Positions 10,577 through 43,576 of a stretch of 64,000 bases of DNA are shown here, piece after piece (position 1 is the stretch's first letter; each line of letters starts with the position of its first letter). Position numbers and translations under genes: made by a program. The DNA comes from Proteobacteria bacterium UBA2136 (lineage in GTDB: Bacteria; Pseudomonadota; Alphaproteobacteria; UBA2136). The notes beneath the pieces are model-generated. The model saw only the letters and a program-made list of their open reading frames with translations, was not told the DNA's origin and searched no databases. The DNA lies in assembly GCA_002328405.1 (NCBI GenBank), contig DCXM01000006.1, positions 104,913 through 168,912 on the forward strand. The letters run 5' to 3'.

Positions 10577-11282
10577 GTTCTGTGTAGAACAAGCCCACAA
10601 CAGGCCCCATATTTTGCTTTTGTATCACCACCGCAGCTTCCAACCCTTCGGGTCTAAGTGGTAATGTCAGGGACAGCTCTTTTTGACCATCCCACACCTT
10701 TAACAGTTCCTTAGAGCGGACAATGTTCACCGAGTGTAAAACACGCCCTTGATTCTCACCCTTGGTGACGGATGTGACAGCTTCAGGTCTGTAAGACACA
10801 TACCAAATATTGGCGACACCGCCCATGTCAAAGGCAGGCATTTGAACATATTCTCGGCCGTTTTTTTGGCTGTAAAAAATTGGGACATTCACTTGATTAT
10901 TTCGTGCCGATGACGCCAACATTTTAACCCGCCAGCCCCATGAGGCAGTGGTTTCTGATTGACCGTCCACCACCACTTGTGGCGTGTACAGGCTGCTGTT
11001 TTCAAACTTTTCCATATAATGCACTTGCCGTTGGCTGAAAGCACCTTGGGCAAAAGGGTCTTGCCAGCCCATTTTATCCCAATAATCCACATGGAAGCTT
11101 AAGGCAAAAAAATCGTCACGCTCATTTAATTGGCGGATAACCTTCTCACCCGCAGGGCAAGATCTGCAACCTTGTGAGGTAAAAAGCTCTAACAGCACAG
11201 GCCTTGCCTGCGCAAACAAGTCGTTCACACAAAAAAGCAAAACCAAGAAGGCAAGGGTTAGTTTTTGCCACATTGCACACAC
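10569..11282 (-). CDS. DUF1223 thioredoxin-like protein (secreted, CxxC)
   Basis: Signal peptide, then ELFTSQGCRSCPAGE, which matches the DUF1223 hallmark (ELFTSQGCSSCP). Overlaps the DoxX stop, so it is likely co-transcribed with the MNIO cluster. Confidence 0.65.
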   Translation of the reverse strand: MCAMWQKLTLAFLVLLFCVNDLFAQARPVLLELFTSQGCRSCPAGEKVIRQLNERDDFFALSFHVDYWDKMGWQDPFAQGAFSQRQVHYMEKFENSSLYTPQVVVDGQSETTASWGWRVKMLASSARNNQVNVPIFYSQKNGREYVQMPAFDMGGVANIWYVSYRPEAVTSVTKGENQGRVLHSVNIVRSKELLKVWDGQKELSLTLPLRPEGLEAAVVIQKQNMGPVVGLFYTEQK

Positions 11283-11836
11283 ACCTTGTTAAATTGACGC
11301 CTCACCCAGCTATCAAGCGACAAACAGCCCGAACCACGGCTGACCACCACCATTAACAGCAGCATCCACAAATAGTGTAAGTCATGTGCTTGGTATGTCA
11401 AATGCATCACCAAGGTCATAATCAGCAAACCAAAGGCCGCAATGCGCCCACCCAAGCCAACAAACAGCATCCAAGCAAAAACAATTTCAAAAAACGTGGC
11501 ACTTAACGCTGCAAATTCAGGTGAAAGATAAGGCACATTGTATTCATATTCAAACAACATATAAGCCGTATCCGTCACTTGATAAGGCAGAGGGATAAGA
11601 GGGAACTGCACACCCAAAAAGCTGACCGTTTCAGGCAAGCCAAACAATCCTTCACCTGTCACCTTGGTGTCAGCCGACCTTAAGAAAATTAAACCCATCC
11701 AAAAGCGTATCACCAACAAATTTACTGGCTCCACCACCCGTTCTAAAAAAATAAACTTACATTGCACCAACTGGCACAACTTTCCCCAACAACCGCATTT
11801 TTTCATAGTTTGATTTTGTTCATTGTTCATGGTCAT
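11258..11836 (-). CDS. DoxX family membrane protein (bufferin-cluster associated)
   Basis: Four predicted TM helices with DoxX-like topology. Overlaps the DUF2063 gene stop; same position as DoxX in bufferin operons. Confidence 0.7.
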   Translation of the reverse strand: MTMNNEQNQTMKKCGCWGKLCQLVQCKFIFLERVVEPVNLLVIRFWMGLIFLRSADTKVTGEGLFGLPETVSFLGVQFPLIPLPYQVTDTAYMLFEYEYNVPYLSPEFAALSATFFEIVFAWMLFVGLGGRIAAFGLLIMTLVMHLTYQAHDLHYLWMLLLMVVVSRGSGCLSLDSWVRRQFNKVCVQCGKN

Positions 11837-12581
11837 CTCTCCTCACAATCAATTGATGTTGCAATGCCAGCGTTAAGGCTTGCTCTAGCGTATCTCCGCC
11901 ATCTTCTTCAGCAATGTCTCTTAAAGTTTTGCCATCAAATAGCGCTTGCATTGCACCGTACACAGCTTTTGACAGCCCCTGAACCTGACAGTCGTAGGAT
12001 TCATCTCGCCATATCAAGGCATATTCATTATGAGCCAAATCAATATTTTCGACATCAAAACCACATTGCGATTGAATGTTATTATAAAGTGAAACAGCTG
12101 CACCATTAAAAGCCATTAAACAGGCCCTATCCACTGCTTTAAAGCGTAAATTTTCCATATCATCTTCGGTTATATGAACCAATGACAGACCCGTTAAAGA
12201 CATGTCATTTTCAGCGTGTTCGCATTGGTGCACCGCCCATTCCAACTTTGCAACATCATATAAAAATGTGTAATTCTGCGCAGAGGGGTGGTTTTGCAAA
12301 AACTCAGGGAATTTTTCACCATATTCAAACAAGCAACCCGATGTCGGTGGATACGCTTTAATATACTCTTCCGCAATGTAGCGAAAATAGGCCAGATCCA
12401 CCAATTCCGCTGTGATAGGGTATGTTGTGTGCAACGCTTTTTTTAAGCTGACAAATATATTGTTTTGATAAATGGCCAGCCGCTCAACCATTTGACCACT
12501 GACAATATCATGACTTGGTAAGCTTGCACCTTCTTGTTTTAAAAAGTGCTGTTGTAAAGTCTGCTGAAGGTTATGCAACAT
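11820..12581 (-). CDS. DUF2063 domain protein, partner of the MNIO enzyme (BufC-like)
   Basis: 253 aa; N-terminal motif …LAIYQNNIFVSLKKAL… (the YRNNV-type motif of DUF2063). Start overlaps the DUF692 gene stop by 11 nt. Confidence 0.75.
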   Translation of the reverse strand: MLHNLQQTLQQHFLKQEGASLPSHDIVSGQMVERLAIYQNNIFVSLKKALHTTYPITAELVDLAYFRYIAEEYIKAYPPTSGCLFEYGEKFPEFLQNHPSAQNYTFLYDVAKLEWAVHQCEHAENDMSLTGLSLVHITEDDMENLRFKAVDRACLMAFNGAAVSLYNNIQSQCGFDVENIDLAHNEYALIWRDESYDCQVQGLSKAVYGAMQALFDGKTLRDIAEEDGGDTLEQALTLALQHQLIVRRDDHEQ

Positions 12582-13449
12582 GTTGAGGCCTTACTTTTTG
12601 TTGAACAGTCATCGCCTTTTCCATTTCCCCTATCAGTACCGAAAGCGCTGGAATCTGACTGTCCCACTCCACCAAAGTGGCTGGTCGCCTGTCTGTGCTT
12701 TTTAAAAACAATTCGTACAACTGCCAAACATCATCTGCCACTTGAGCACCATGACTATCCACTTTCACCACCTGACCAGAGGCAAGGGTTTGCAATTCAT
12801 GCCCCGCAAGGTGCACCTCCTCAACCGCATCAAACGGCATGGCGCGTAATTGATCCGTCGCATCAAGGCCCAAATTTTCCGCCGTGACATAAACATTGTT
12901 CATATCCAACAGTAAACCACAACCTGTTTTTTCCACCATTTGGCTTAAAAACTCACCTTCTGGTTGCTGACCCTTCAAATTAAAGCCAACGTAAACAGAA
13001 GGGTTTTCCATCAAAATCTTCCTGCCCAAAAATTGTTGAACCATGTCAATATGCTGGCACAGTCTTTCCAGCGCTTCTCGGGTATAAGGCAGTGGCAGAA
13101 GGTCATTGAGATGCATACCGTCCACCCCTGACCATGACACATGTTCACTGACCAACGACGGTTGATATTGATCGACAATTTCTTTAAGGCGTTTTAGGTG
13201 TTTAAGGTCTGGCCTTGTGTGTGAACCTAGGGACAAACCAACACCGTGAAAACTTAGAGGATAATGTTCAGCCAATGCCTGCAAATAGGCATGCGCCTTA
13301 CCGCCTAATGCAAAAAAATTTTCACTGTGTACTTCCAAAAACCCAATTTCAGGCTTTTGTTCTAGAATTTCTTGATAATGCGGTGCACGCAATCCCACAC
13401 CTACATGAGCTGTGAGGTCTTGTGCACCATTTGGTCGGATGTCGTTCAT
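12571..13449 (-). CDS. multinuclear non-heme iron-dependent oxidative enzyme, MNIO/DUF692 (BufB-like)
   Basis: 292 aa; hallmark DUF692 motifs VGVGLRAPHY and FLEVHSENFF, TIM-barrel-like length. Abuts the precursor gene stop (13450). Confidence 0.85.
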   Translation of the reverse strand: MNDIRPNGAQDLTAHVGVGLRAPHYQEILEQKPEIGFLEVHSENFFALGGKAHAYLQALAEHYPLSFHGVGLSLGSHTRPDLKHLKRLKEIVDQYQPSLVSEHVSWSGVDGMHLNDLLPLPYTREALERLCQHIDMVQQFLGRKILMENPSVYVGFNLKGQQPEGEFLSQMVEKTGCGLLLDMNNVYVTAENLGLDATDQLRAMPFDAVEEVHLAGHELQTLASGQVVKVDSHGAQVADDVWQLYELFLKSTDRRPATLVEWDSQIPALSVLIGEMEKAMTVQQKVRPQHVA

Positions 13450-13713
13450 TTAAGACTCGGACGATTCCAAACTGCCGTTTACCAGCTTATCGCAAAGCCC
13501 TTTTGGAACGTAAACCCATTCAGTGGTGTCGCCATCTTCTTTTGACATACCTGCGCATGAGTGTACCGATGTACCACAGTCGTTTTGACCGGCTTTAGCA
13601 ACACCATAACATTTTTCATGTTCTTTTTTCTTCGCTTCAGCTTCACTGGCAGCGCCCGTGGTTGCAAGCGCACCTGTTAGCGCCAAGAAAGCCAATTTCG
13701 TTGTATTGTTCAT
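13450..13713 (-). CDS. DUF2282 precursor peptide (bufferin-like RiPP precursor, BufA-like)
   Basis: 87 aa. Sec signal peptide ([25 protein letters not shown]), then core [42 protein letters not shown] with 4 Cys in the DUF2282 pattern CYGVxxAGxNDC…HxCAG…WxxVPKGxC. Confidence 0.8.
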
Positions 13714-13921: not shown

Positions 13922-15442
13922 TTACCAAGCGTCAAACTTGCCTTTAAATTCAGGGTCAGCGTAGTAGCGGATTTTTTCTGCTAAGACCGGACGACAACCC
14001 TGGACAAAAATAACCTGTGCGTCGTTTGGCATCCGCATCACTTCATCAGGGGTCATGAGAGGTCTCGACGTTTCGGAAACGTTGCTGCTGACATTGCCAC
14101 CAAACCACTGCCCCTTCTCCTTCGAGGTCCCTTCACCTGCCACACGGACCGTGGTTGTACCCATCATGTCAGACAAAATTTTGGCGGTGTCAAAGTCATT
14201 GGTACCAAAAGCCATCCGAACACTACAGTTGGCAATTAAGGACGCCCACTTGGGATAATCTTCCTTAATTTGTGATAAATCCTGAATAAACATCCAAAGG
14301 GAAATGCCATAACCAGCCAAATAACCGACACCTGATTCGATGTTTTTCATGTAACCAAGGGCTGGAAACTCATCAATAATAAACAAAGTTGGGTCTTTTG
14401 GTTTTTCTTGGGTACGGGTCAGCGTGGCAATAGTGATACCCATCATCAAACGCACTACAGGCTTGTATACATCTAAATACTCAGGTGGAATAATCACATA
14501 AAAAGATGTCGGCTCTTTTTTAATGTCTTCTAATTTAAAGTCACTGCGTGATGTGATGGAGGTTAGCCTTGGGCTGTCCCAAACAGCGGTTTGCGACTTT
14601 GCGGTGGAAAGAACCGAAGCCAATACCTTAGGCTCGGTCGCCGCTACTGAGTTAGCAATCCTTTGGATAATTTGGTTTTTACTGCGCTGCATGTCTTTAA
14701 TGGTCAGCTGAAAGTCTTTTTGGTCCTGCATAATCAGGTAACGCACCTCGCCCAAGTTGCGCAGCGCCGCAGGGCTTTCATTGGCCACATAAAGAATAAG
14801 GCCTGTGATCACGGTTTTTGCTTCATTGGTCCAAAACTCATCGCCACCACCGGGGACAATAATCATATCCGCAATTAAGGCGGCATCATCCAACTCATCA
14901 CTGGTGTTAATGCGAATAAAATCAATGGGGTTAAAGCAACCGCTACCTTCCATAAACGGTGCAAACGTGATTACTTTTGAAAATTGTGCACGGTGACGAC
15001 CAGAAACGGCGTAGTTTTCACCTTTAATGTCATTCACAACCACAGATCCTGGGTGGTCCAACAAGTTTGGAATAACGTGACCAACACCCTTACCACTACG
15101 TGTCGGTGCAAACGTGATTAAGTGACCAGGACTGCGAAAGCGCACAAATTTATTATCAAACTTGCCCAGCATAAAGCCATTTTCACGGACAAGATCCGCT
15201 TCTTTAAGATCCTTCATGGTTGCAAAGTCAGCAGAACCGTGGGCATGACTTGCCTTGCCTTGCATTTTCTTAAGTTCGCCCACTTGCTTTTTATAGCCTG
15301 CTTTGGGGCGATTTTTAAAATAAATATAAGCCATCGCAACAACAGCGGCAACAACCGCTGGAATCATCAACCCTTCCGGTACAACAAAAGGAATGGCCGC
15401 AGCCACCACAAGAGCTGTATACAAAAAAGTTTTTTGAGACAT
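13922..15442 (-). CDS. virD4: type IV secretion system coupling protein, VirD4/TraG family
   Basis: 506 aa; two N-terminal TM helices, Walker A APTRSGKGVGHVIPNLL (VirD4 type), Walker B LFIIDEFPALG. No other T4SS genes in the window. Confidence 0.75.
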   Translation of the reverse strand: MSQKTFLYTALVVAAAIPFVVPEGLMIPAVVAAVVAMAYIYFKNRPKAGYKKQVGELKKMQGKASHAHGSADFATMKDLKEADLVRENGFMLGKFDNKFVRFRSPGHLITFAPTRSGKGVGHVIPNLLDHPGSVVVNDIKGENYAVSGRHRAQFSKVITFAPFMEGSGCFNPIDFIRINTSDELDDAALIADMIIVPGGGDEFWTNEAKTVITGLILYVANESPAALRNLGEVRYLIMQDQKDFQLTIKDMQRSKNQIIQRIANSVAATEPKVLASVLSTAKSQTAVWDSPRLTSITSRSDFKLEDIKKEPTSFYVIIPPEYLDVYKPVVRLMMGITIATLTRTQEKPKDPTLFIIDEFPALGYMKNIESGVGYLAGYGISLWMFIQDLSQIKEDYPKWASLIANCSVRMAFGTNDFDTAKILSDMMGTTTVRVAGEGTSKEKGQWFGGNVSSNVSETSRPLMTPDEVMRMPNDAQVIFVQGCRPVLAEKIRYYADPEFKGKFDAW

Positions 15443-15555
15443 TGAAGCTTTACGCCTTATATTTTTTATTCACTATACACGCCGTACCAAACCTGTAAAG
15501 ACAAGCGCACCATTATAACCGCCCTGCTGTGACTTTGCAGTAGCACTTACAAGGG

Positions 15556-15804
15556 CTAGCGCTCTAAATCAAAGCCTTGTTCTTGCTCATGTTGTTGCTC
15601 AAGGCTTTTATCCATGACTTTATCACGGCCTTTCTCCAGCGCCATTTGAACTTGGCGAGACTGCGCAAGATAAACTTCATGCGTTTGCTCGGATTCTTTT
15701 AAAATCGTTTGAGCCGCACTCAACTCACCCTCGAGTGGTTTAATTTCACCATCTAAAAGCTCTTTAATTTGAGCAGATTTTTTTTCTCCATCAATCACAA
15801 CCAT
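15556..15804 (-). CDS. hypothetical coiled-coil protein (82 aa)
   Basis: Glu/Lys/Gln-rich helical ORF, translationally coupled (3-nt gap) to the upstream 183-aa ORF; upstream of virD4. Confidence 0.35.
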   Translation of the reverse strand: MVVIDGEKKSAQIKELLDGEIKPLEGELSAAQTILKESEQTHEVYLAQSRQVQMALEKGRDKVMDKSLEQQHEQEQGFDLER

Positions 15805-15807
15805 TTT

Positions 15808-16359
15808 TTAAACTCCCTTTAGTATATGCCCAAGCCAATTGGCAATTTTTTTGCCTTCGTTGAATGACTTTTTCATTTGTTCATAATTTATTGTATGCGC
15901 AACTTCTTTTGCGCGCAACCTGCCCCCAGTATTCACAACACCAAAAAGTGAAAAACCACGCAAATTACCAAAAACAGCCGGACGATTGCGCAGTGTCCAA
16001 CCTGTTTTAATCAGCCCTTTAACACCTTCCCACTGCAAACATTTTTGTTCTGCTTGGCTTGGTTTTTTGTAAACAATGCTAAAATTCGTACGCAAGTCTT
16101 TTTGAATCAGTTCCAATTTTGAGCGTATATCCTTAAAATCCTGCTTTAGGATTTGAATTTGATTCTCAATTTTTCGCACACGCCTTTTATTACCCCAAAT
16201 TGTGGAATCGCTCTCTTCCAGTGCCTTATTGAGGTAATGATTCAGCGCCGCCAGCTCGCTGGGTTTCATATTGTTTACAAGGTCAGAAAATTGGGCCTCT
16301 TTCCCAGTGTGACCCAGTATTTCCTTCAGTTCTGGCCTTGCGGCAAGAATATCCATCAT
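15808..16359 (-). CDS. hypothetical protein (183 aa)
   Basis: Intact ORF, no recognisable domain; first gene of a three-gene string ending in virD4. Confidence 0.4.
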   Translation of the reverse strand: MMDILAARPELKEILGHTGKEAQFSDLVNNMKPSELAALNHYLNKALEESDSTIWGNKRRVRKIENQIQILKQDFKDIRSKLELIQKDLRTNFSIVYKKPSQAEQKCLQWEGVKGLIKTGWTLRNRPAVFGNLRGFSLFGVVNTGGRLRAKEVAHTINYEQMKKSFNEGKKIANWLGHILKGV

Positions 16360-16560
16360 AAGTTCCCTTTTGCTTACACAGTTAATCCCCTTAACAGTTA
16401 TTTATAGAACATCACACCAATTCAATTATTAAAAAAACTTACACCTCCTGACACCTCAGGTTTTTATTATTTTTTTGATAAATAAGATATTTAGGCTTGC
16501 ATTCCATTCTACGCACCCCTACACCTTTTTAAAGAGGGAATTTAATGACGAGGGCAAGCC

Positions 16561-17106
16561 ATGCCACAACGTGATAAGTATGAAAAACTGTTGGATTTGA
16601 CGTCTCAAATGTCGTCTGATCAACAAATTGAGTTCATCCACAAAATTATAACCGACATTCCGCTTCAAACATTTTTTAATGAAAGAGATGCGCAAACAAT
16701 TGCACCCGTGGTGGACCTTATTCAAGAAACACTCACCTACAACATAGAAGCTAATTTATTTGAAGAAATGTTGGGATTGATGGCCTTTAAATGCGAAGAC
16801 ACCCATAACAAAAGCAAAGCATCAGTGCAAACGGTAACACATCAAAAAAAGGCTAAAGCCGCTTCCTACATAACAGATGCGGTATACAGCAGCTTAGAGT
16901 TCATTTACCATGAGCAACAAGAAAAAAGCTGCCCAATCAACATTATGCATATTTTAAACAACATTGAACTGGGTTATAAGTGGCTTAATGAATCAGCCAG
17001 TAAACCACATAAATTTTTAGAAACCTCTGCAGAAACAGCGCTAGAGATTCTGAATTGTGAAAAACCCCTTTATGTGGCAGAAGTTGTCAACTTCCCCAAC
17101 CGCTAG
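16561..17106 (+). CDS. hypothetical protein (181 aa)
   Basis: Intact ORF; no domain recognised. Confidence 0.4.
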   Translation: MPQRDKYEKLLDLTSQMSSDQQIEFIHKIITDIPLQTFFNERDAQTIAPVVDLIQETLTYNIEANLFEEMLGLMAFKCEDTHNKSKASVQTVTHQKKAKAASYITDAVYSSLEFIYHEQQEKSCPINIMHILNNIELGYKWLNESASKPHKFLETSAETALEILNCEKPLYVAEVVNFPNR

Positions 17107-18563
17107 AGCGTTGCGGACACATCCACAGTGATTGACACCTCAGCTGAGGAAACAGCACCCGTTAAGCTAACAGGTTCAACTTCCGCTTCCACGTCAACCT
17201 CTGTTTCACCTTCAACTACGATTACAGTAGGTGAGACAACTTTAACAACCCCATCTACCACCACAGCCGTTTCGGACACATCACTTTGTGGCATAACAGC
17301 TGTTTCGCTGACTTCTAAGGTAGGGGCAGCTGAGGGCTGACTTTCGTCCACCTCAAGGCCTGTCACTTCTGTCACAGAGCTCATTCCTTGTGACTTATCT
17401 TCTACCGCTTCAGGGTCAGAAGTCACCACATCTTCCACATCCCCCAAGTAAGACTCTAAAATATGGTTAAAACTTGGCACAAACATCATAATAGGGAAGC
17501 CATTAAACAACACTTTTTGACCTGTACTTTCGAAGTGAATTTCTACCTCTTCTTGTCCTTTAGGGGTGAATTTGGTGAGGTCCACCGGTGCTTCATTAAC
17601 ACCGCCAATATGGTTTAAAGCATCAATGTTTTTAAGTTTAATGCGCATTTGCCCCACGGGCTTCATATCGTCATTCAGGCGTAACTGATATGAAAGTTCC
17701 CCTTCAAAGTCATCAATTTTAAGGGATAAATCTTCCAAAGAAAATTCAGCCCCTTGCTGAGCCATATTCTTTGCAAAGGCCATGAGGGAATTTTTTAGCG
17801 CCCGTTTTTGTGCAGTGGTCGCATTTTGAGCGTCCAAAGCGTGCACAGCGTCTAACAATACACGCACATCAGTTGGCATATTTTTCAACAAAAGTTTAAA
17901 ACTAAAAGCATCCACTTCAAAACTGTTCTCGGCTTGCAAATCAAAGAATGTTGCACCTGAAACTTTGACAGATGTTTCACCATTCAATGCACCTTTTGTG
18001 GTTTTATCTGACGAGTTAAGGTGAATAGAGTTGACAGTTAACAAGCGTTTTTCCGCAATGTCTTCCGATGTCACATAAACATCCAAATCACTCATCACGC
18101 CCTTGTAATTCTTGGAAACGCCCCAAACACCTTCACCCACAGAGCGGGCAATGTTAAAACGCATTTGAACATTGTCTTGGTCGGACTGGACATCCACAAC
18201 ACCTTCAAAGTCCTTAATAAAGCTGTGAACCTGAATGGGTTGACCTGTAAACACTTTATAAAAATCAAAAATGGAAACATAGACGCGGTTTTCGCCACTG
18301 GTTGTAAGCTTAGCGCGGTGGTTTGTGCTTTTTTCAAACAAAATAAGACCAACATTTTCCACATCAAACCCAGCCTTAAAAGGAAAGCCCGTTGGTTTGA
18401 GAGTGTAATGAACATCCACGTCTGTTTTAGGGTTTGAAAGTTGCAATCTTTCAATATTTTGTGCAACAACCTCTTCAACTTTGTGAAGGGTTTGAAGCCA
18501 CAAAAAGTACCAGCCAACTGTAACTGCCAGCAAAACAACAAACAACCAACTTAAGCGCTTCAT
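17103..18563 (-). CDS. hypothetical N-terminally anchored protein with Val/Glu/Thr/Ser-rich repetitive C-terminus
   Basis: N-terminus MKRLSWLFVVLLAVTVGWYFLW (signal anchor, reminiscent of alphaproteobacterial DUF2125 proteins). C-terminal ~100 aa carries SETAV/VxVE repeats. Confidence 0.45.
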   Translation of the reverse strand: MKRLSWLFVVLLAVTVGWYFLWLQTLHKVEEVVAQNIERLQLSNPKTDVDVHYTLKPTGFPFKAGFDVENVGLILFEKSTNHRAKLTTSGENRVYVSIFDFYKVFTGQPIQVHSFIKDFEGVVDVQSDQDNVQMRFNIARSVGEGVWGVSKNYKGVMSDLDVYVTSEDIAEKRLLTVNSIHLNSSDKTTKGALNGETSVKVSGATFFDLQAENSFEVDAFSFKLLLKNMPTDVRVLLDAVHALDAQNATTAQKRALKNSLMAFAKNMAQQGAEFSLEDLSLKIDDFEGELSYQLRLNDDMKPVGQMRIKLKNIDALNHIGGVNEAPVDLTKFTPKGQEEVEIHFESTGQKVLFNGFPIMMFVPSFNHILESYLGDVEDVVTSDPEAVEDKSQGMSSVTEVTGLEVDESQPSAAPTLEVSETAVMPQSDVSETAVVVDGVVKVVSPTVIVVEGETEVDVEAEVEPVSLTGAVSSAEVSITVDVSATL

Positions 18564-18792
18564 ATAATCACTCCATATTTGTATGATAGACTTGTGAGTA
18601 TAGGGGCAAACGCCTTTTTTTTAAACCATTTTCTAGTCCAAATCATTAGACCTTGCCCACAAGACTTATTTTTGCTATTTTTGATGAGATACAACTTTAC
18701 AACATATTCTTTTCATTCACCCAAACCTACACTCTTGTCATTACATACAAATAATTGACATTTATCAAAAACATACCTGTGGAGGTATCGTT

Positions 18793-19671
18793 ATGCAGTC
18801 ACCCAAGTACCCAACCCTGACTAAAAAAGGGTTTTTAACCAAGCGTGGGCATGACCTGGACAAAAACCTCATTGAATTTTTAAATGAAGTGATTTCCCAA
18901 ATGCCTCACGGCTTACCCCTTAATAGCAAAATACGTGGATTGTACGCACAAGACCTTTATATGCAAACGTATGAAGGTCAAGCATCACCACAACTGCCTT
19001 TTGCTGAAAATATCAGCGAAGAAACCTTGCGGCAAAACCTGTTTGAATGGACACAAAACTCTCCGCTTCGGCTGATTACATCTTATGATCCTAATCAGTC
19101 AAACAGCCCGCAAGTGTACCTTGAGCGCTACCCGTTGTTCATCACGGAAGAATTGATTGGATACATTCACTTTTTCCGCACCAGTGATGAACCGCACTTG
19201 CACACCCACCCGTGGCGCACATCTTACAGCGCCATTTTAGCAGGTGGATACACCGAAACCCGCTTGAAGGACATGACGTTACTAGCCGAAGGGAAAGGCT
19301 GTGTTCAACATCAACGTTCCGCCGGGAGCTTTGGCAGTTTAACCCATCAAACCCAGCACTTTGTAACCCTCCCGCAAACCGCAACGGGTGAACGCACCTG
19401 CTGGACCCTGTTTTTGCACCACCGCAACTGGGAATACGGCTGGGGATTTACTGAAAATGAACCTGTTGTCGCCAAAGTGTGGGATGACCTTGCCAATGAT
19501 GGAAACGGTGAATACAAAGAAACTTCTGGCACGTTGTTTGTCACCAAAGAAAAAGGTGGCGGTGCGAACAAAAAAAGCTGGTGGACCATGGAGCAAGGAC
19601 CAACTCGTTTTATTGATAAAGCCCACATCCTCAGGGAAAAGTACCAGCTTTCCAAAGATAGCTATTTATAA
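18793..19671 (+). CDS. hypothetical protein (292 aa) with His-rich HLHTHPW motif
   Basis: GGAGG RBS; possible metal-binding His cluster (cupin-like?) but no confident family assignment. Confidence 0.45.
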   Translation: MQSPKYPTLTKKGFLTKRGHDLDKNLIEFLNEVISQMPHGLPLNSKIRGLYAQDLYMQTYEGQASPQLPFAENISEETLRQNLFEWTQNSPLRLITSYDPNQSNSPQVYLERYPLFITEELIGYIHFFRTSDEPHLHTHPWRTSYSAILAGGYTETRLKDMTLLAEGKGCVQHQRSAGSFGSLTHQTQHFVTLPQTATGERTCWTLFLHHRNWEYGWGFTENEPVVAKVWDDLANDGNGEYKETSGTLFVTKEKGGGANKKSWWTMEQGPTRFIDKAHILREKYQLSKDSYL

Positions 19672-19698
19672 AAACAACCCCTTCGAATAAAAACACCC

Positions 19699-19730
19699 TC
19701 AATGCGAGGGTGTTTTTTTGTTTATCTACA
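19699..19730. terminator. bidirectional rho-independent terminator
   Basis: acaccctcaatgcgagggtgttttttt between convergent genes. Confidence 0.5.
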
Positions 19731-19738
19731 AGCTTCTG

Positions 19739-20110
19739 TTAAAAGCCTTTGATACCATGCACTACCATCAAACAGCCAAAAATGGCTACCATCGCACCGC
19801 TGATGACCCATAAATTCACCTTTGCTTGATCCACAATAATCGCCATCAACGTCATCCAAATCACTGTAAAAATGACTGTACCTACACCGCCAATGGTCGC
19901 ACCACCAATTTCGTAAGCCTTACCAATCAAATAATTAGAAGGGCCAAAAAACAAAGGGAAGGCTGCAATGATCCGCAAAACAACATTGTCGGTCAATGCG
20001 TATAGACCGCCAAAAACAGAAGGGAACAAAAAGCCATTTAAAAAAGCAATACCCAAATAAACACCCGCCATACCAAGGGCTGATAATGCAAACGCATAAA
20101 CTGTAATCAT
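19739..20110 (-). CDS. hypothetical small integral membrane protein (123 aa, ~4 TM)
   Basis: Highly hydrophobic with Gly-rich helices. Start overlaps the upstream helicase gene stop (ATGA), so it is co-transcribed with it. Confidence 0.45.
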   Translation of the reverse strand: MITVYAFALSALGMAGVYLGIAFLNGFLFPSVFGGLYALTDNVVLRIIAAFPLFFGPSNYLIGKAYEIGGATIGGVGTVIFTVIWMTLMAIIVDQAKVNLWVISGAMVAIFGCLMVVHGIKGF

Positions 20111-21426
20111 GAATTTTCTTTCATTTTTTGACTTTGCGCATAGTCCTTCACAAAACTTAAAATACGCTCATCGCATTTAATGTCTCTCGCCTGAATGGGT
20201 TTTTTTAGCGCAATTTTATCAAAATGTCTACATCTGGAAAGGGCAACGTAAAGCTGACCTGGCGCAAAAGCACCTCGACCCAAATCAATAATCGCACTGT
20301 CCAATGTTTTGCCTTGGCTTTTGTGAATGGTGATCGCCCATGCTAAAATAAGGGGGTACTGGCTAAAGCTGCCAATTTCCTCTTCCACCAGCTTATCTTC
20401 CTCTTCATCAAAAGAATAGCGGATAGACGGCCACTTTTCCTGTTCTATCTTGTAACGCCTTGGCTCACCATTTTTAAAAATTTCCACTTCCACATTTTTC
20501 AGGGACAAGTTCACCACACGACCAATGGTGCCATTGACCCACCTTTTATCAGGGTCATTTTTCACAAACATCACCTGCGCCCCTTCTTTAAGAACCAGCC
20601 TTTCAGGGCAAGGCAGGCGACCAGTCTCGCTGTCAAACTCCCCCTTCACGTCTCCTTTAAAAGTGTAGGGCGTGCCCTTCAGCTCTTTGAGCTTTGATTG
20701 ATTCAACGTATTGGCAATTTTGTTGGTAGAACACAAGGTAACACTGCTTTGATAGTCCTCCATATCCACACCATGACGTTCATTTAAAAAGTTTAAAATC
20801 TCCGGCGTTTTGTGGCCAACCCGCACCCGATTTAAAGTATCAATAAAGCCGTCTTCTTGTTGCCTAAAAATGTTGTTAAAGCGCACAAGTTCAAAGTCGT
20901 CCATGTCAAAACTGTGGGCATCAAAGAAAAAGGGAGAATTGTAAAAACGTTTAAAATATTCCTCTTCTTCACCGGTAATCACAGGTGGCAGCTGAAAAAG
21001 GTCCCCAATGACGCACATTTGAACACCGCCAAACGGCATACCTTGTTGAGGACCATTGACACGCAAAACCTTTTCAATACCATCCATCACATCGGCACGC
21101 ACCATGGAAATTTCATCAATAATCACCAAATCAATTTGCTGATAAGTTTTGCGGTTGCGGCGCCGACCAATGTTTGAAACATCGACAAACCGAGGTTCCA
21201 AACCAAAAAATGAATGAATGGTCTGTCCCCTGACATTTAAAGCGCTGACACCCGTTGGCGCCACGACGACGATGTTCTTTTTGGTGTTTTTACGAAAATA
21301 ATCCAAAAAAGTGGATTTACCAGTCCCCGCCTTACCTGTGATAAACACATGACTGCCAGTATACTCCAGCGTTTCAAACGCTTTTTCGAATTCGCTGGTT
21401 AATTTAATGTCATCGGAAGAAATCAT
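20107..21426 (-). CDS. Pif1/RecD-like ATP-dependent DNA helicase (AAA_30 + UvrD_C_2)
   Basis: Walker A GKAGTGKST, Walker B VIIDEISMV, C-terminal IHKSQGKTLD motif. The track start at 21462 is a TTG; the first ATG is at 21426. Confidence 0.8.
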   Translation of the reverse strand: MISSDDIKLTSEFEKAFETLEYTGSHVFITGKAGTGKSTFLDYFRKNTKKNIVVVAPTGVSALNVRGQTIHSFFGLEPRFVDVSNIGRRRNRKTYQQIDLVIIDEISMVRADVMDGIEKVLRVNGPQQGMPFGGVQMCVIGDLFQLPPVITGEEEEYFKRFYNSPFFFDAHSFDMDDFELVRFNNIFRQQEDGFIDTLNRVRVGHKTPEILNFLNERHGVDMEDYQSSVTLCSTNKIANTLNQSKLKELKGTPYTFKGDVKGEFDSETGRLPCPERLVLKEGAQVMFVKNDPDKRWVNGTIGRVVNLSLKNVEVEIFKNGEPRRYKIEQEKWPSIRYSFDEEEDKLVEEEIGSFSQYPLILAWAITIHKSQGKTLDSAIIDLGRGAFAPGQLYVALSRCRHFDKIALKKPIQARDIKCDERILSFVKDYAQSQKMKENS

Positions 21427-21539
21427 AAGAAAGAATATCTCACAAAAGGTTACCACTCGCAATTACCACTTTACAAAAAATGCAAACAAGCCTACATTAC
21501 AAAAAGTTATCAACTTTCTTTTCCTTTTCAGGAGGCTTT

Positions 21540-35528: not shown

Positions 35529-35712
35529 TGTTTTTCTCTTCTTTTTGAATGCTTTAAAGTTAATTTTTGTTTATCAATTATTTTAAATTCCATTGTACCG
35601 TCATGTAAAGCATTTTAGCAAAAAACACCCTCTTACAGGGTGCGCATCCAAGGCAACGCTGTTGCAAATTTAATCTGTTTTAAATATTAAGAATGGTAAT
35701 GTCTTGCGCCGG

Positions 35713-36411
35713 TTAAGCTTTAATGTCCAACAAGGCATCTTCCATATCATTCACAGCGGAGAATACTGTTAAGCTGGCTTCATATGCTCTTTGTGAAACT
35801 TTCATATCCACCACAGGGGACACAGGGTCACTGGCAGCCAGAAAAGCTTCAGGCGATAAATCCGACCCGCTTACCACATTGGCGGCGGCACTGTATGTGT
35901 TCACCAAGTCGGTTGCCGCATATGAAAAGTCTGTTTGGGCTTTTTGCGCCCCTTTCACAGCTGTCGTCAATGCGGAAGAAGCACTTAAAGTTCCTGAATT
36001 TAATAAATTAATCAATAAAACATCCCTCCAATTTTAAGCGTATTGATCGACAGCGTCGCTGTTACTTAGATAAGCTTGTGACAGAACACCACCCGACGCG
36101 CCATATGATGAGGTGAGCAAGCCTGATAAACCTTGACTGCCAACACCGTAAGCGGCACTTAGTAACGAATCTGCCGCGCTGTAACTGTTCAGTTGAGCCA
36201 GCGAGCTTAATGTCGATTCCTGAGAACTGAGAGCTTGCGCCACCGCACCCGAAAGGGGCTGTGTTTGGCCACCAAAATCCACATTCACATCAGGAATTTG
36301 CTGACTGACGTAGGACTGTAACAATGAACTTTGGGACGCACTGCTCAAAACACGGCTACCAAAGCTGTTGGCCAGCAGTGATTGATTCATCGTACTTGTA
36401 ATGTTGGTCAT
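35713..36411 (-). pseudogene. flagellar basal-body rod/hook-family gene remnant, one reading frame interrupted by a single in-frame TAA
   Basis: ORFs 36034-36411 and 35713-36015 are in the same frame, separated only by the stop at 36034-36036. The downstream part ends with a Flg_bbr_C-like motif (…VVDMKVSQRAYEASLTVFSAVNDMEDALLDI). Ser/Ala/Gly-rich middle. Confidence 0.4.
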
Positions 36412-36550
36412 TTTTACCTCCCTTTCTCTCTACATTTATGGCATTTCACGTAAATTATGGACTGACAAGGGGTTGTTTCCAGAAAAACCAAACTTCACAG
36501 CGCAACCCTTAGAACAGTTTAAAACAACCAAAATAGGTCGGACATTAAAC

Positions 36551-37378
36551 TTATGACCCCATCAACACCAAAGACAAGGCTTTTTTGTGGGTGATTTCAA
36601 TGTCATCTTGTAGTTTTGTCAGCGCTTCCATTTTTCGGAAATCTTGGGTGGTTTGGGCGACCCCCACCTCCGATTCCGCGCGTGAAAGCCCTGTTTCAAT
36701 GCGGTTTAGTTCTTCACCTTTAATGTCAATCATCTTCGCTTGTTCGGCATCACCACTTAGAGCACTTGAACCACCCAAACCCGCCAACGGCTCGGCACTG
36801 CCTTGACCGCCACTACTGGTAATCGGCTCCTCAATATATTCCGGCACAGGCGACGCTTCGCCGACATCCTCACCAGACACTGATGAAGGCTCAGACGACA
36901 ATTCTCCAATGTTACTGGTGCGACCAATATTAGAAAGAGCTGCTGTGGCGCTAGAACCTTCAACCGCACCGGTGGTTCCTGCTAACGCCACCAAAGCTGC
37001 ACTGGTTGCTGCGGCGGAGATCTCCTCATCACCTTGAGGTAAGTCAAAAACACTGCGGGCGTTGGTGATGGCGACAATTTCATCTAAAAAGGATTGGTCC
37101 GTCACAGCACTGTCCGTATTCACGCTTTGAATAGCATTCACCATCTGGCTTGAAACTGCAACTGTAGCGGACAGCCCACCCATGGATGACATGTCCGTAA
37201 AGGCTGGACCTTCCTCATTATTGGGGGACAGTCTGGAAAATCCAAATGGATTATCCTGACTTGCAAAACCATTCGCGATATTAAGTGCAACAACACCGAA
37301 GTCCGAACTATGTTCTTCTATTCCCATTGAGACACGAGCGTAAGCGCTCATGGCAACTGAATTGACTCCTGCGACCAT
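36551..37378 (-). CDS. hypothetical Ser/Ala/Gly/Thr-rich low-complexity protein with rod-protein-like N-terminus (possible second flagellar remnant)
   Basis: N-terminus …FGVVALNIANGFAS… resembles the NIAN motif of flagellar rod/hook proteins. The remainder is low complexity; different frame from the downstream remnant. Confidence 0.35.
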   Translation of the reverse strand: MVAGVNSVAMSAYARVSMGIEEHSSDFGVVALNIANGFASQDNPFGFSRLSPNNEEGPAFTDMSSMGGLSATVAVSSQMVNAIQSVNTDSAVTDQSFLDEIVAITNARSVFDLPQGDEEISAAATSAALVALAGTTGAVEGSSATAALSNIGRTSNIGELSSEPSSVSGEDVGEASPVPEYIEEPITSSGGQGSAEPLAGLGGSSALSGDAEQAKMIDIKGEELNRIETGLSRAESEVGVAQTTQDFRKMEALTKLQDDIEITHKKALSLVLMGS

Positions 37379-37575
37379 GGCATAACCTTTCTAGCATTAC
37401 ATTTATTCAATTTTATTCTTTTTTGCACTTGCTTGATACGGCTTCCATCCACACTACTTATGGGAATGTATACAACTTTATTTTTGAATATTCCTGTCAC
37501 CCCTTAATGGATAACCATACCAACCCTTTGTGGTTTTGCTTTATCTTATTTTCAAAACATTGTATAAAACGTGGC

Positions 37576-43222: not shown

Positions 43223-43576
43223 TTAGTCGCCAAAAATACCAAACAAGCGTGGATCTGCTTCGCAATATCCTTTGTCATGGTAACAATTGGCATAATACCA
43301 CTTTTCTTCACCATTTGGCTTGCGTACTTCAATTTCACAATCCACTTCGCTGTATTCGTCATCATCTGCGTCGCATTCAAGACCACCAATATGCTCCATA
43401 CCTTGTTCGTGCACATGACGCACCAAAAGCTGCTTGGCAATTTGTTCACGCTCGCCAGGCCAAACATACGGGCCAGAAACAATAAACCAAGAGCCATAAG
43501 CAATCGCGCATAACACTCCAATAATAACCAACACAACTATCAGCTCAATCAACGTAAAACCTTTTGAATTTTTCAT
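43223..43576 (-). CDS. type IV prepilin-like protein (prepilin-type N-terminal cleavage/methylation domain), orphan
   Basis: Met30 of the track ORF gives MKNSKGFTLIELIVVLVIIGVLCAIA, the class III signal peptide (G|FTLIE) shared by type IV pilins and T2SS pseudopilins. C-terminal domain has 4 Cys. Confidence 0.6.
   Translation of the reverse strand: MKNSKGFTLIELIVVLVIIGVLCAIAYGSWFIVSGPYVWPGEREQIAKQLLVRHVHEQGMEHIGGLECDADDDEYSEVDCEIEVRKPNGEEKWYYANCYHDKGYCEADPRLFGIFGD

Follow-up and report, generated by a model that had tools for sequence, protein, structure and literature searches.

A hairpin relative of flagellar rod proteins encoded away from flagellar genes in a marine alphaproteobacterial lineage

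Introduction

The terminal helices of axial proteins build a coiled-coil inner tube, and they unfold when the protein is exported by the type III route. A small protein of this kind is the subject of the present analysis: the 100-aa product of a gene that we call g3, found in a 64,000-nucleotide stretch of Proteobacteria bacterium UBA2136 (assembly GCA_002328405.1, contig DCXM01000006.1, positions 104,913 to 168,912; the whole stretch is referred to as the window). On the evidence of profile comparisons, g3 is homologous to both terminal (D0) helices of rod proteins and is closest to FlgC. It is the last of three consecutive genes, g1, g2 and g3, which comparison with relatives indicates are intact, separately translated and kept by selection.

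The closest described system is FlgC, the 134-aa proximal rod protein (TIGR01395), which carries the domains Flg_bb_rod (PF00460) and Flg_bbr_C (PF06429). With it g3 shares a C-terminal helix bearing the motif (A/S)QRAYEA(S/N)xKV...DEM and an acidic, Cys-free composition; hhalign pairs g3 with E. coli FlgC at a probability of 86% (E 4.7e-6). In the family profile the N-terminal helix aligns with the rod N-terminal motif, but the window g3 alone has no PF00460 match. However, g3 has only 100 aa, is without the middle domain and lies outside the flgBC-fliE operon or any flagellar locus.

Two other kinds of protein invite comparison. The needle and inner-rod proteins of injectisomes (PrgI/MxiH/YscF and PrgJ/YscI) polymerise after type III export, and they are helix-turn-helix proteins of about 80-100 aa, that is, D0-only hairpins like the predicted model of g3. 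Unlike them, g3 has no match to their sequence families and no injectisome gene nearby, and its affinity is to the flagellar rod. FliE, the rod adaptor of about 104 aa on the export gate, is similar in size and is likewise a small helical axial-type protein with no outer domains, but the window g3 gives no FliE match. Among database entries, WP_159997900.1 (Roseomonas sp. 18066, 99 aa) belongs to the same family of about 100 aa (profile E 2.1e-8), and WP_111068137.1 and WP_109331458.1 (Azospirillum, 134-136 aa) come from orphan FlgC-like genes outside flagellar operons. These entries are only 27-33% identical to g3, and their genes have neither g1 and g2 as partners nor the position between tsaB and gdh described below. 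They have no described function, and we found no paper on them.

A D0-only rod-type protein

A first-pass annotation of the window had listed three open reading frames on the minus strand in this region. All three are present, as follows:

36551-37378, minus strand: g1, open reading frame of 275 aa
36034-36411, minus strand: g2, open reading frame of 125 aa
35713-36015, minus strand: g3, open reading frame of 100 aa with a TTG start
36024-36029, minus strand: ribosome-binding site of g3 (GGAGGG), 9 nt 5' of the TTG and within the 18-nt spacer between g2 and g3

That annotation had likened the 100-aa frame to the C-terminus of rod and hook proteins, and the likeness is borne out. The C-terminal end of g3 (...VSQRAYEASLTVFSAVNDMEDALLDIKA / ...VDMKVSQRAYEASLTVFSAVNDMEDALLDIKA) is matched by Pfam PF06429 at 27.6 bits (E 2e-6), over the curated cut-off of 23. 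The NCBIfam models of FlgC (TIGR01395; 19.9 bits, cut-off 102.1) and FlgG (13.1 bits, cut-off 252.75) give weak matches to the C-terminal end only, and because both equivalog cut-offs are missed by a wide margin, g3 is not filed as FlgC. No PF00460 match was found for the window protein. When a profile of six close g3 sequences was run against 177,635 sequences of the Protein Data Bank (PDB), the C-termini of FlgG, FlgC and FlgF were the only ones returned.

Both ends of the protein were also compared profile to profile, using hhalign against alignments of the termini of E. coli FlgB, FlgC, FlgF, FlgG, FlgE, FlgK and FlgL, with 40 column-shuffled controls. The g3 family aligns with the rod C-termini at E 1.5e-10 (probability 97%) and with the rod N-termini at E 8.4e-6 (probability 83%), the latter with a score of 27.8 against 6.3+/-0.9 for the shuffled controls. 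Its best full-length partners are FlgC, FlgG and FlgE. An AlphaFold2 model built from the family alignment is a hairpin, with a helix at residues 2-49, a short helix at 55-62 and a further helix at 66-99 (mean predicted local distance difference test score, pLDDT, 77.6); the predicted chain is helix-loop-helix only and the middle (Dc/D1) domain is missing. Alignments and model together show g3 as a rod-protein derivative that is complete in itself, a D0-only 'mini-rod' in which both terminal helices are kept, the middle domain is absent and the predicted fold is a hairpin. Since both rod helices are present in g3 alone, no upstream half is required.

Three intact genes rather than a broken frame

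The first-pass annotation had read g2 and g3 as one frame broken by a single stop, proposed sequencing error as a possible cause, and taken the genes for decaying flagellar remnants. The layout that it described is correct: one reading frame holds g2 and g3, and only the TAA at 36034-36036 and six further codons come between g2 and the TTG of g3. Its interpretation is not upheld. In every relative a purine-rich ribosome-binding site and an ATG (in the window a TTG) stand at the same place in the spacer, and g2 and g3 are separate genes. In one related locus (L001) the spacer has 13 nt, which puts g3 in another frame than g2, and in a second (L005) there are two in-frame stops between the genes. 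Nor is the stop a sequencing error, since an identical 125-aa g2 product occurs as one cluster on 42 contigs of independent assemblies (from NCBI, JGI, ENA, Logan and TARA). No fusion of g2 with g3 turned up when 1.84 billion representatives were searched with a sensitive profile, and in deeper lineages g3 is present without g2 or g1. Lengths are conserved as well, at 100-101 aa in all close relatives of g3 and 271-285 aa in the g1 orthologues.

The spacer between g2 and g3 is a multiple of three in four of the five lineages compared (the window, L001, L005, L010 and L011), with 18, 15, 9 and 9 nt against the 13 nt of L001. This usual in-frame spacing may be chance.

Selection was examined with Nei-Gojobori counts in five genes, namely the trio and its neighbours tsaB and gdh. 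Synonymous differences (pS) are saturated in all five, at about 0.55-0.9, and the proportions of non-synonymous differences (pN) are as follows:

g1: pN 0.13-0.29 (0.19-0.29 against the window)
g2: pN 0.25-0.49
g3: pN 0.23-0.34, with pS 0.55-0.79
tsaB: pN 0.27-0.41
gdh: pN 0.13-0.21

The trio is therefore under purifying selection, comparable with that on the housekeeping neighbour tsaB. A pseudogene or remnant is rejected because the orthologues keep the same lengths and boundaries, pN is far under pS and no fused orthologue was found. Readthrough of the stop codon, joining g2 to g3, is rejected on the two stops of L005, the other frame of L001 and the absence of a fused homologue.

A rare family and its genomic settings

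The order rimI-tsaB / g1 g2 g3 / gdh (the last encoding a large NAD-glutamate dehydrogenase, NAD-GDH, of 1615 aa) recurs in six related loci (L001, L005, L009, L010, L011 and L026), whose proteins are 53-72% identical. The carriers of the trio form a marine lineage of metagenome-assembled genomes (MAGs), labelled 'Magnetococcales bacterium' or 'Alphaproteobacteria bacterium', and we found nothing informative on this lineage in the literature.

The g3 family is wider than the trio. A profile search gave 66 representatives at E<=1e-3, nearly all of 90-125 aa and matched over their full length; a metagenome scan with a narrower family alignment gave four loci. Flg_bbr_C is matched by 53 of the 60 members tested (best 5.5e-13), Flg_bb_rod (PF00460) by two (best E 0.002) and FliE, weakly, by one (E 5e-4), and none of the 60 matches a needle or inner-rod family of Pfam. 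In sources the family goes only by the name 'flagellar basal body rod C-terminal domain-containing protein'. One member of 104 aa, from a microbial-mat contig of high GC content (L028), resembles FlgC at its two ends and reaches 48.9 bits for Flg_bbr_C. The full-length orphan FlgC-like genes on Azospirillum chromids encode 134-136 aa with the middle domain present, and these proteins look like longer ancestors of the g3 family. They lie outside flagellar operons (9001-9405 in L032 and 9001-9411 in L033), adjoin genes for a PP2C phosphatase and a TPR protein, and are annotated only as 'rod C-terminal domain-containing protein'.

In other marine lineages a g3-family gene stands between tsaB and a large (about 1600-aa) NAD-GDH gene with neither g1 nor g2, and the GDH of these deeper lineages is only 46-52% identical to that of the window. 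Two such settings (L016/L017 and L027) have a g3 homologue and neither partner, two more homologues lie on short contigs (L012 and L015), and in L025 a 140-aa g1-like gene adjoins the g3 homologue. The L028 gene is 1.5 kb from a gdh whose product is 37% identical. Across L012, L015, L016/L017, L025, L027 and L028, the mini-rod gene thus stays beside the NAD-GDH gene of about 1600 aa, and usually beside tsaB too, at GDH identities of 37-52%. This persistent neighbourhood may reflect a functional link or the inheritance of gene order. Elsewhere the settings vary: the Roseomonas sp. 18066 gene is directly upstream of a rimI-like acetyltransferase gene, and other neighbours of family members are gcrA, a GGDEF-EAL gene and a Rieske protein gene. 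A literature search found nothing on small proteins with Flg_bbr_C only or on orphan FlgC paralogues. In sum, g3 belongs to an uncharacterised and rare alphaproteobacterial family that is encoded away from flagellar genes.

The companion genes g1 and g2

The g1 product consists of a highly conserved N-terminal part of about 105 aa (including LNIANGF...GFSR), a variable middle rich in Ser, Thr, Ala and Gly, and a conserved C-terminal helix at 241-274. Its homologues, 271-285 aa in length, fall into 15 clusters, and every one comes from a marine MAG or metagenome. The AlphaFold2 model is mostly disordered (pLDDT 44) and unusable, and no fold search was made with it. A rod-type NIAN motif had been proposed for g1, and this was not confirmed. 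The segment itself is present (VVALNIANGF, residues 29-38), and the rod motif (gl......v.a.NIAN..t.G[fy]..) can be aligned to GIEEHSSDFGVVALNIANGFASQDNPFGFSR at the N-terminus with an insertion of five residues. On the other hand, no PF00460 match appears even at E<=10, the g1 profile search of PDB sequences returned no rod protein, and the hhalign comparison with the E. coli rod N-termini is weak (E 0.033; score 14.6 against 8.6+/-1.7 for shuffled controls, none of the 40 reaching it).

The g2 product is rich in Ser, Gln and Ala, has no Cys, Trp, His or Lys, and combines a conserved core of about 90 aa with a lineage-specific tail. The gene has its own ribosome-binding site (GGGAGG), and homologues of 90-130 aa lie at the same position in L001, L005, L009, L010 and L011. 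Neither g1 nor g2 has a match in Pfam or NCBIfam even at E<=10. Both products are rich in Ser, Ala, Gly and Gln, and both genes are limited to the sub-lineage of the window, apart from the short g1-like gene of L025. All three products of the trio have an isoelectric point of about 4.1 and contain no Cys or Trp, a composition typical of axial or exported proteins.

Several other candidate identities were rejected. A phage or defence origin of g1 and g2 found no match in PHROGs or PADLOC. A Flg_bbr_C-like helix at the C-terminus of g1, suggested by ...QFRAYEAAEKL... in the L025 homologue, is unsupported (E 0.19 and 0.077). An apparent similarity of g1 to NeuB/SiaC was an artefact of one chimeric sequence, P0020, in the g1 profile, and it vanished once P0020 was removed. 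That sequence (L009, MAG MED694, NZGE01000059.1) has 380 aa, with a NeuB-like N-terminus fused to the C-terminal 63% of g1, and is probably an artefact of assembly or gene calling.

Signals around the trio

Two further features flank the genes:

35616-35643, minus strand: intrinsic-terminator-like hairpin (35643-35625) and T-run, about 70 nt past the g3 stop, between the trio and gdh
37467-37500, minus strand: motifs conserved between the divergent genes tsaB and g1, GTGACAG at 37494-37500 and the palindromic TTGTATACA at 37467-37475

The hairpin, found in a consensus scan, has a stem of 7 bp with four GC pairs and is followed by TTTTTGCTAA. GTGACAG and TTGTATACA do not vary across four aligned lineages, although the intergenic sequence around them has otherwise diverged, and are candidates for promoter or operator elements of g1 or tsaB. 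Read by eye, and with no formal search, the region upstream of g1 shows no obvious sigma-54 or sigma-28 consensus. An RNA scan of the window found no Rfam family and no tRNA.

What the trio might do

In rod, hook and needle proteins the D0 hairpin depends on type III export and packs into a tube, and for this reason we propose that g3 would act through the same packing surface. It might self-assemble, or dock on or insert into a rod-type D0 assembly, serving as a small axial subunit, an adaptor or a cap that is exported; another option is that it regulates such assembly or competes with it. The products of g1 and g2, which are acidic, Cys-free, largely disordered and found in the sub-lineage only, would probably be co-exported partners or substrates in the same unit, and the trio would be expressed from a housekeeping neighbourhood (tsaB-rimI / g1 g2 g3 / gdh) rather than from a flagellar operon. 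By analogy with known axial proteins, we tentatively favour an exported or assembling axial-type subunit or adaptor, with g1 and g2 as its partners, while holding this to be somewhat short of an even prospect.

Several observations weigh against this proposal, the first of which is the genomic context. As the first-pass annotation had said, there are no other flagellar genes within 64 kb: neither tblastn with 36 E. coli proteins nor Pfam scans of the open reading frames of the window found any flagellar, motor or chemotaxis gene, and none was found in 28 related loci, a search that was local. Locally, g3 is not encoded with other flagellar genes. Precomputed Pfam annotation of the co-linear contigs, including 10 kb past each end (about 84 kb in total), shows no flagellar or type III gene, no injectisome or secretion genes lie near the locus, and no recognisable flagellar or type III genes occur within +/-10 kb of g3-family genes in about 10 independent contexts. 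Secondly, a Foldseek search of the PDB with the g3 model returned generic coiled coils only, and neither the C-terminus of g1 nor the whole of g2 has significant similarity to the 36 E. coli flagellar proteins. In addition, the gene has long stayed beside gdh and tsaB, which hints at a role outside the flagellum. Finally, the group of strain 18066, one carrier of the family, has been renamed Pseudoroseomonas, a genus described as non-motile, although a table in the same paper lists motility as variable (PMC8414978); this is a hint only.

The main rival is a repurposed relic; the first-pass annotation had named divergent, repurposed rod-like proteins as its alternative. Here the lineage would have no flagellum, and the D0-only hairpin (with g1 and g2) would serve in a flagellum-independent role, for example as a coiled-coil scaffold that assembles itself, or as a regulator with ties to the large NAD-GDH (GdhZ type) or to tsaB/rimI. 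In Caulobacter, GdhZ-type GDH couples metabolism to cell division. Besides the consistent absence of family genes from flagellar loci and the non-motile description of one carrier's genus, this explanation draws on the order tsaB / g3 / gdh, kept at a GDH identity of 46-52%, on the g3 gene that still lies 1.5 kb from gdh at 37%, and on the Roseomonas member upstream of its acetyltransferase gene. Yet a terminator-like hairpin separates g3 from gdh, other members adjoin unrelated genes (gcrA, GGDEF-EAL, Rieske), so that the linkage may be inherited order, and an interaction with GDH is without evidence. Moreover, Azospirillum, which bears the related orphan FlgC-like gene, is flagellated. We regard the relic as a serious possibility, albeit a rather doubtful one. 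A more specific version is unlikely in our judgement: a FlgC-derived D0-only family, kept next to tsaB and the giant NAD-GDH gene over deep alphaproteobacterial divergence and joined here by two disordered partners, would work independently of any flagellum, for example as a self-assembling filament or scaffold of a new kind, or as a regulator connected with metabolic and cell-cycle control of the GdhZ type.

Chance or convergence fares much worse. On this view g3 would be an Ala-rich helical hairpin with no relation to rod proteins, and its amphipathic C-terminal helix would only imitate the QRAYEAN motif. The shortness of the match (about 35 aa), the generic coiled coils returned by Foldseek and the missing PF00460 match of the window g3 alone are all compatible with it. 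However, g3 exceeds a curated Pfam threshold and members of its family reach 5.5e-13 and 4.6e-13; rod proteins alone were returned from the PDB sequences; an independent alignment joins the N-terminal helix to rod N-termini, with a score far over the shuffled controls; and intermediates grade into full FlgC-like proteins. A chance resemblance is thus highly improbable and effectively excluded.

The weakest alternative, that these are decaying flagellar genes and that g2 plus g3 is one rod/hook gene cut by one stop or by a sequencing error, has the shared frame, the single TAA and the usual multiple-of-three spacer to recommend it, but it is scarcely credible and effectively excluded by a g3 that keeps about 100 aa in close relatives and about 90-125 aa across the family, is never fused, occurs without g2 and bears both rod termini alone, as well as by L001 and L005, by purifying selection and by the same stop in 42 contigs.

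Other features of the window

The window contains further loci of interest. At 11258-13713 on the minus strand lies a complete operon, consisting of a Cys-containing DUF2282 precursor with a signal peptide (13450-13713; PF10048, 85 bits), an MbnB/DUF692 enzyme (12571-13449), a DUF2063 protein (11820-12581) and a DoxX protein (11258-11836). From its arrangement, we take it to be a bufferin-type operon for a ribosomally synthesised and post-translationally modified peptide (RiPP). The region 13922-21462, with a slightly lower GC content (0.41-0.44), carries an orphan TraG/VirD4-like coupling protein of type IV secretion (13922-15442), five open reading frames with no Pfam match and a PIF1-like helicase (20107-21462), and is probably the remnant of an integrated mobile element. 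A lone gene resembling type IV pilins or pseudopilins, with an N-terminal methylation motif (PF07963, 42 bits), lies at 43226-43576 on the minus strand between rpsO/truB and pnp. It occupies the same place in L001, and no other pilus genes are nearby.

Significance

The finding corrects a pseudogene call that the layout of g2 and g3 makes tempting. Whichever role g3 has, pipelines that take Flg_bbr_C as a marker of motility would be misled by orphans of this kind. If g3 is flagellar, Alphaproteobacteria would have a small axial component or adaptor that no list includes and whose gene stands apart from the flagellar regulon, with consequences for our understanding of rod nucleation or capping. 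If g3 is independent of the flagellum, the family would offer a clean case of reuse of the axial D0 hairpin, parallel to the needles of injectisomes.

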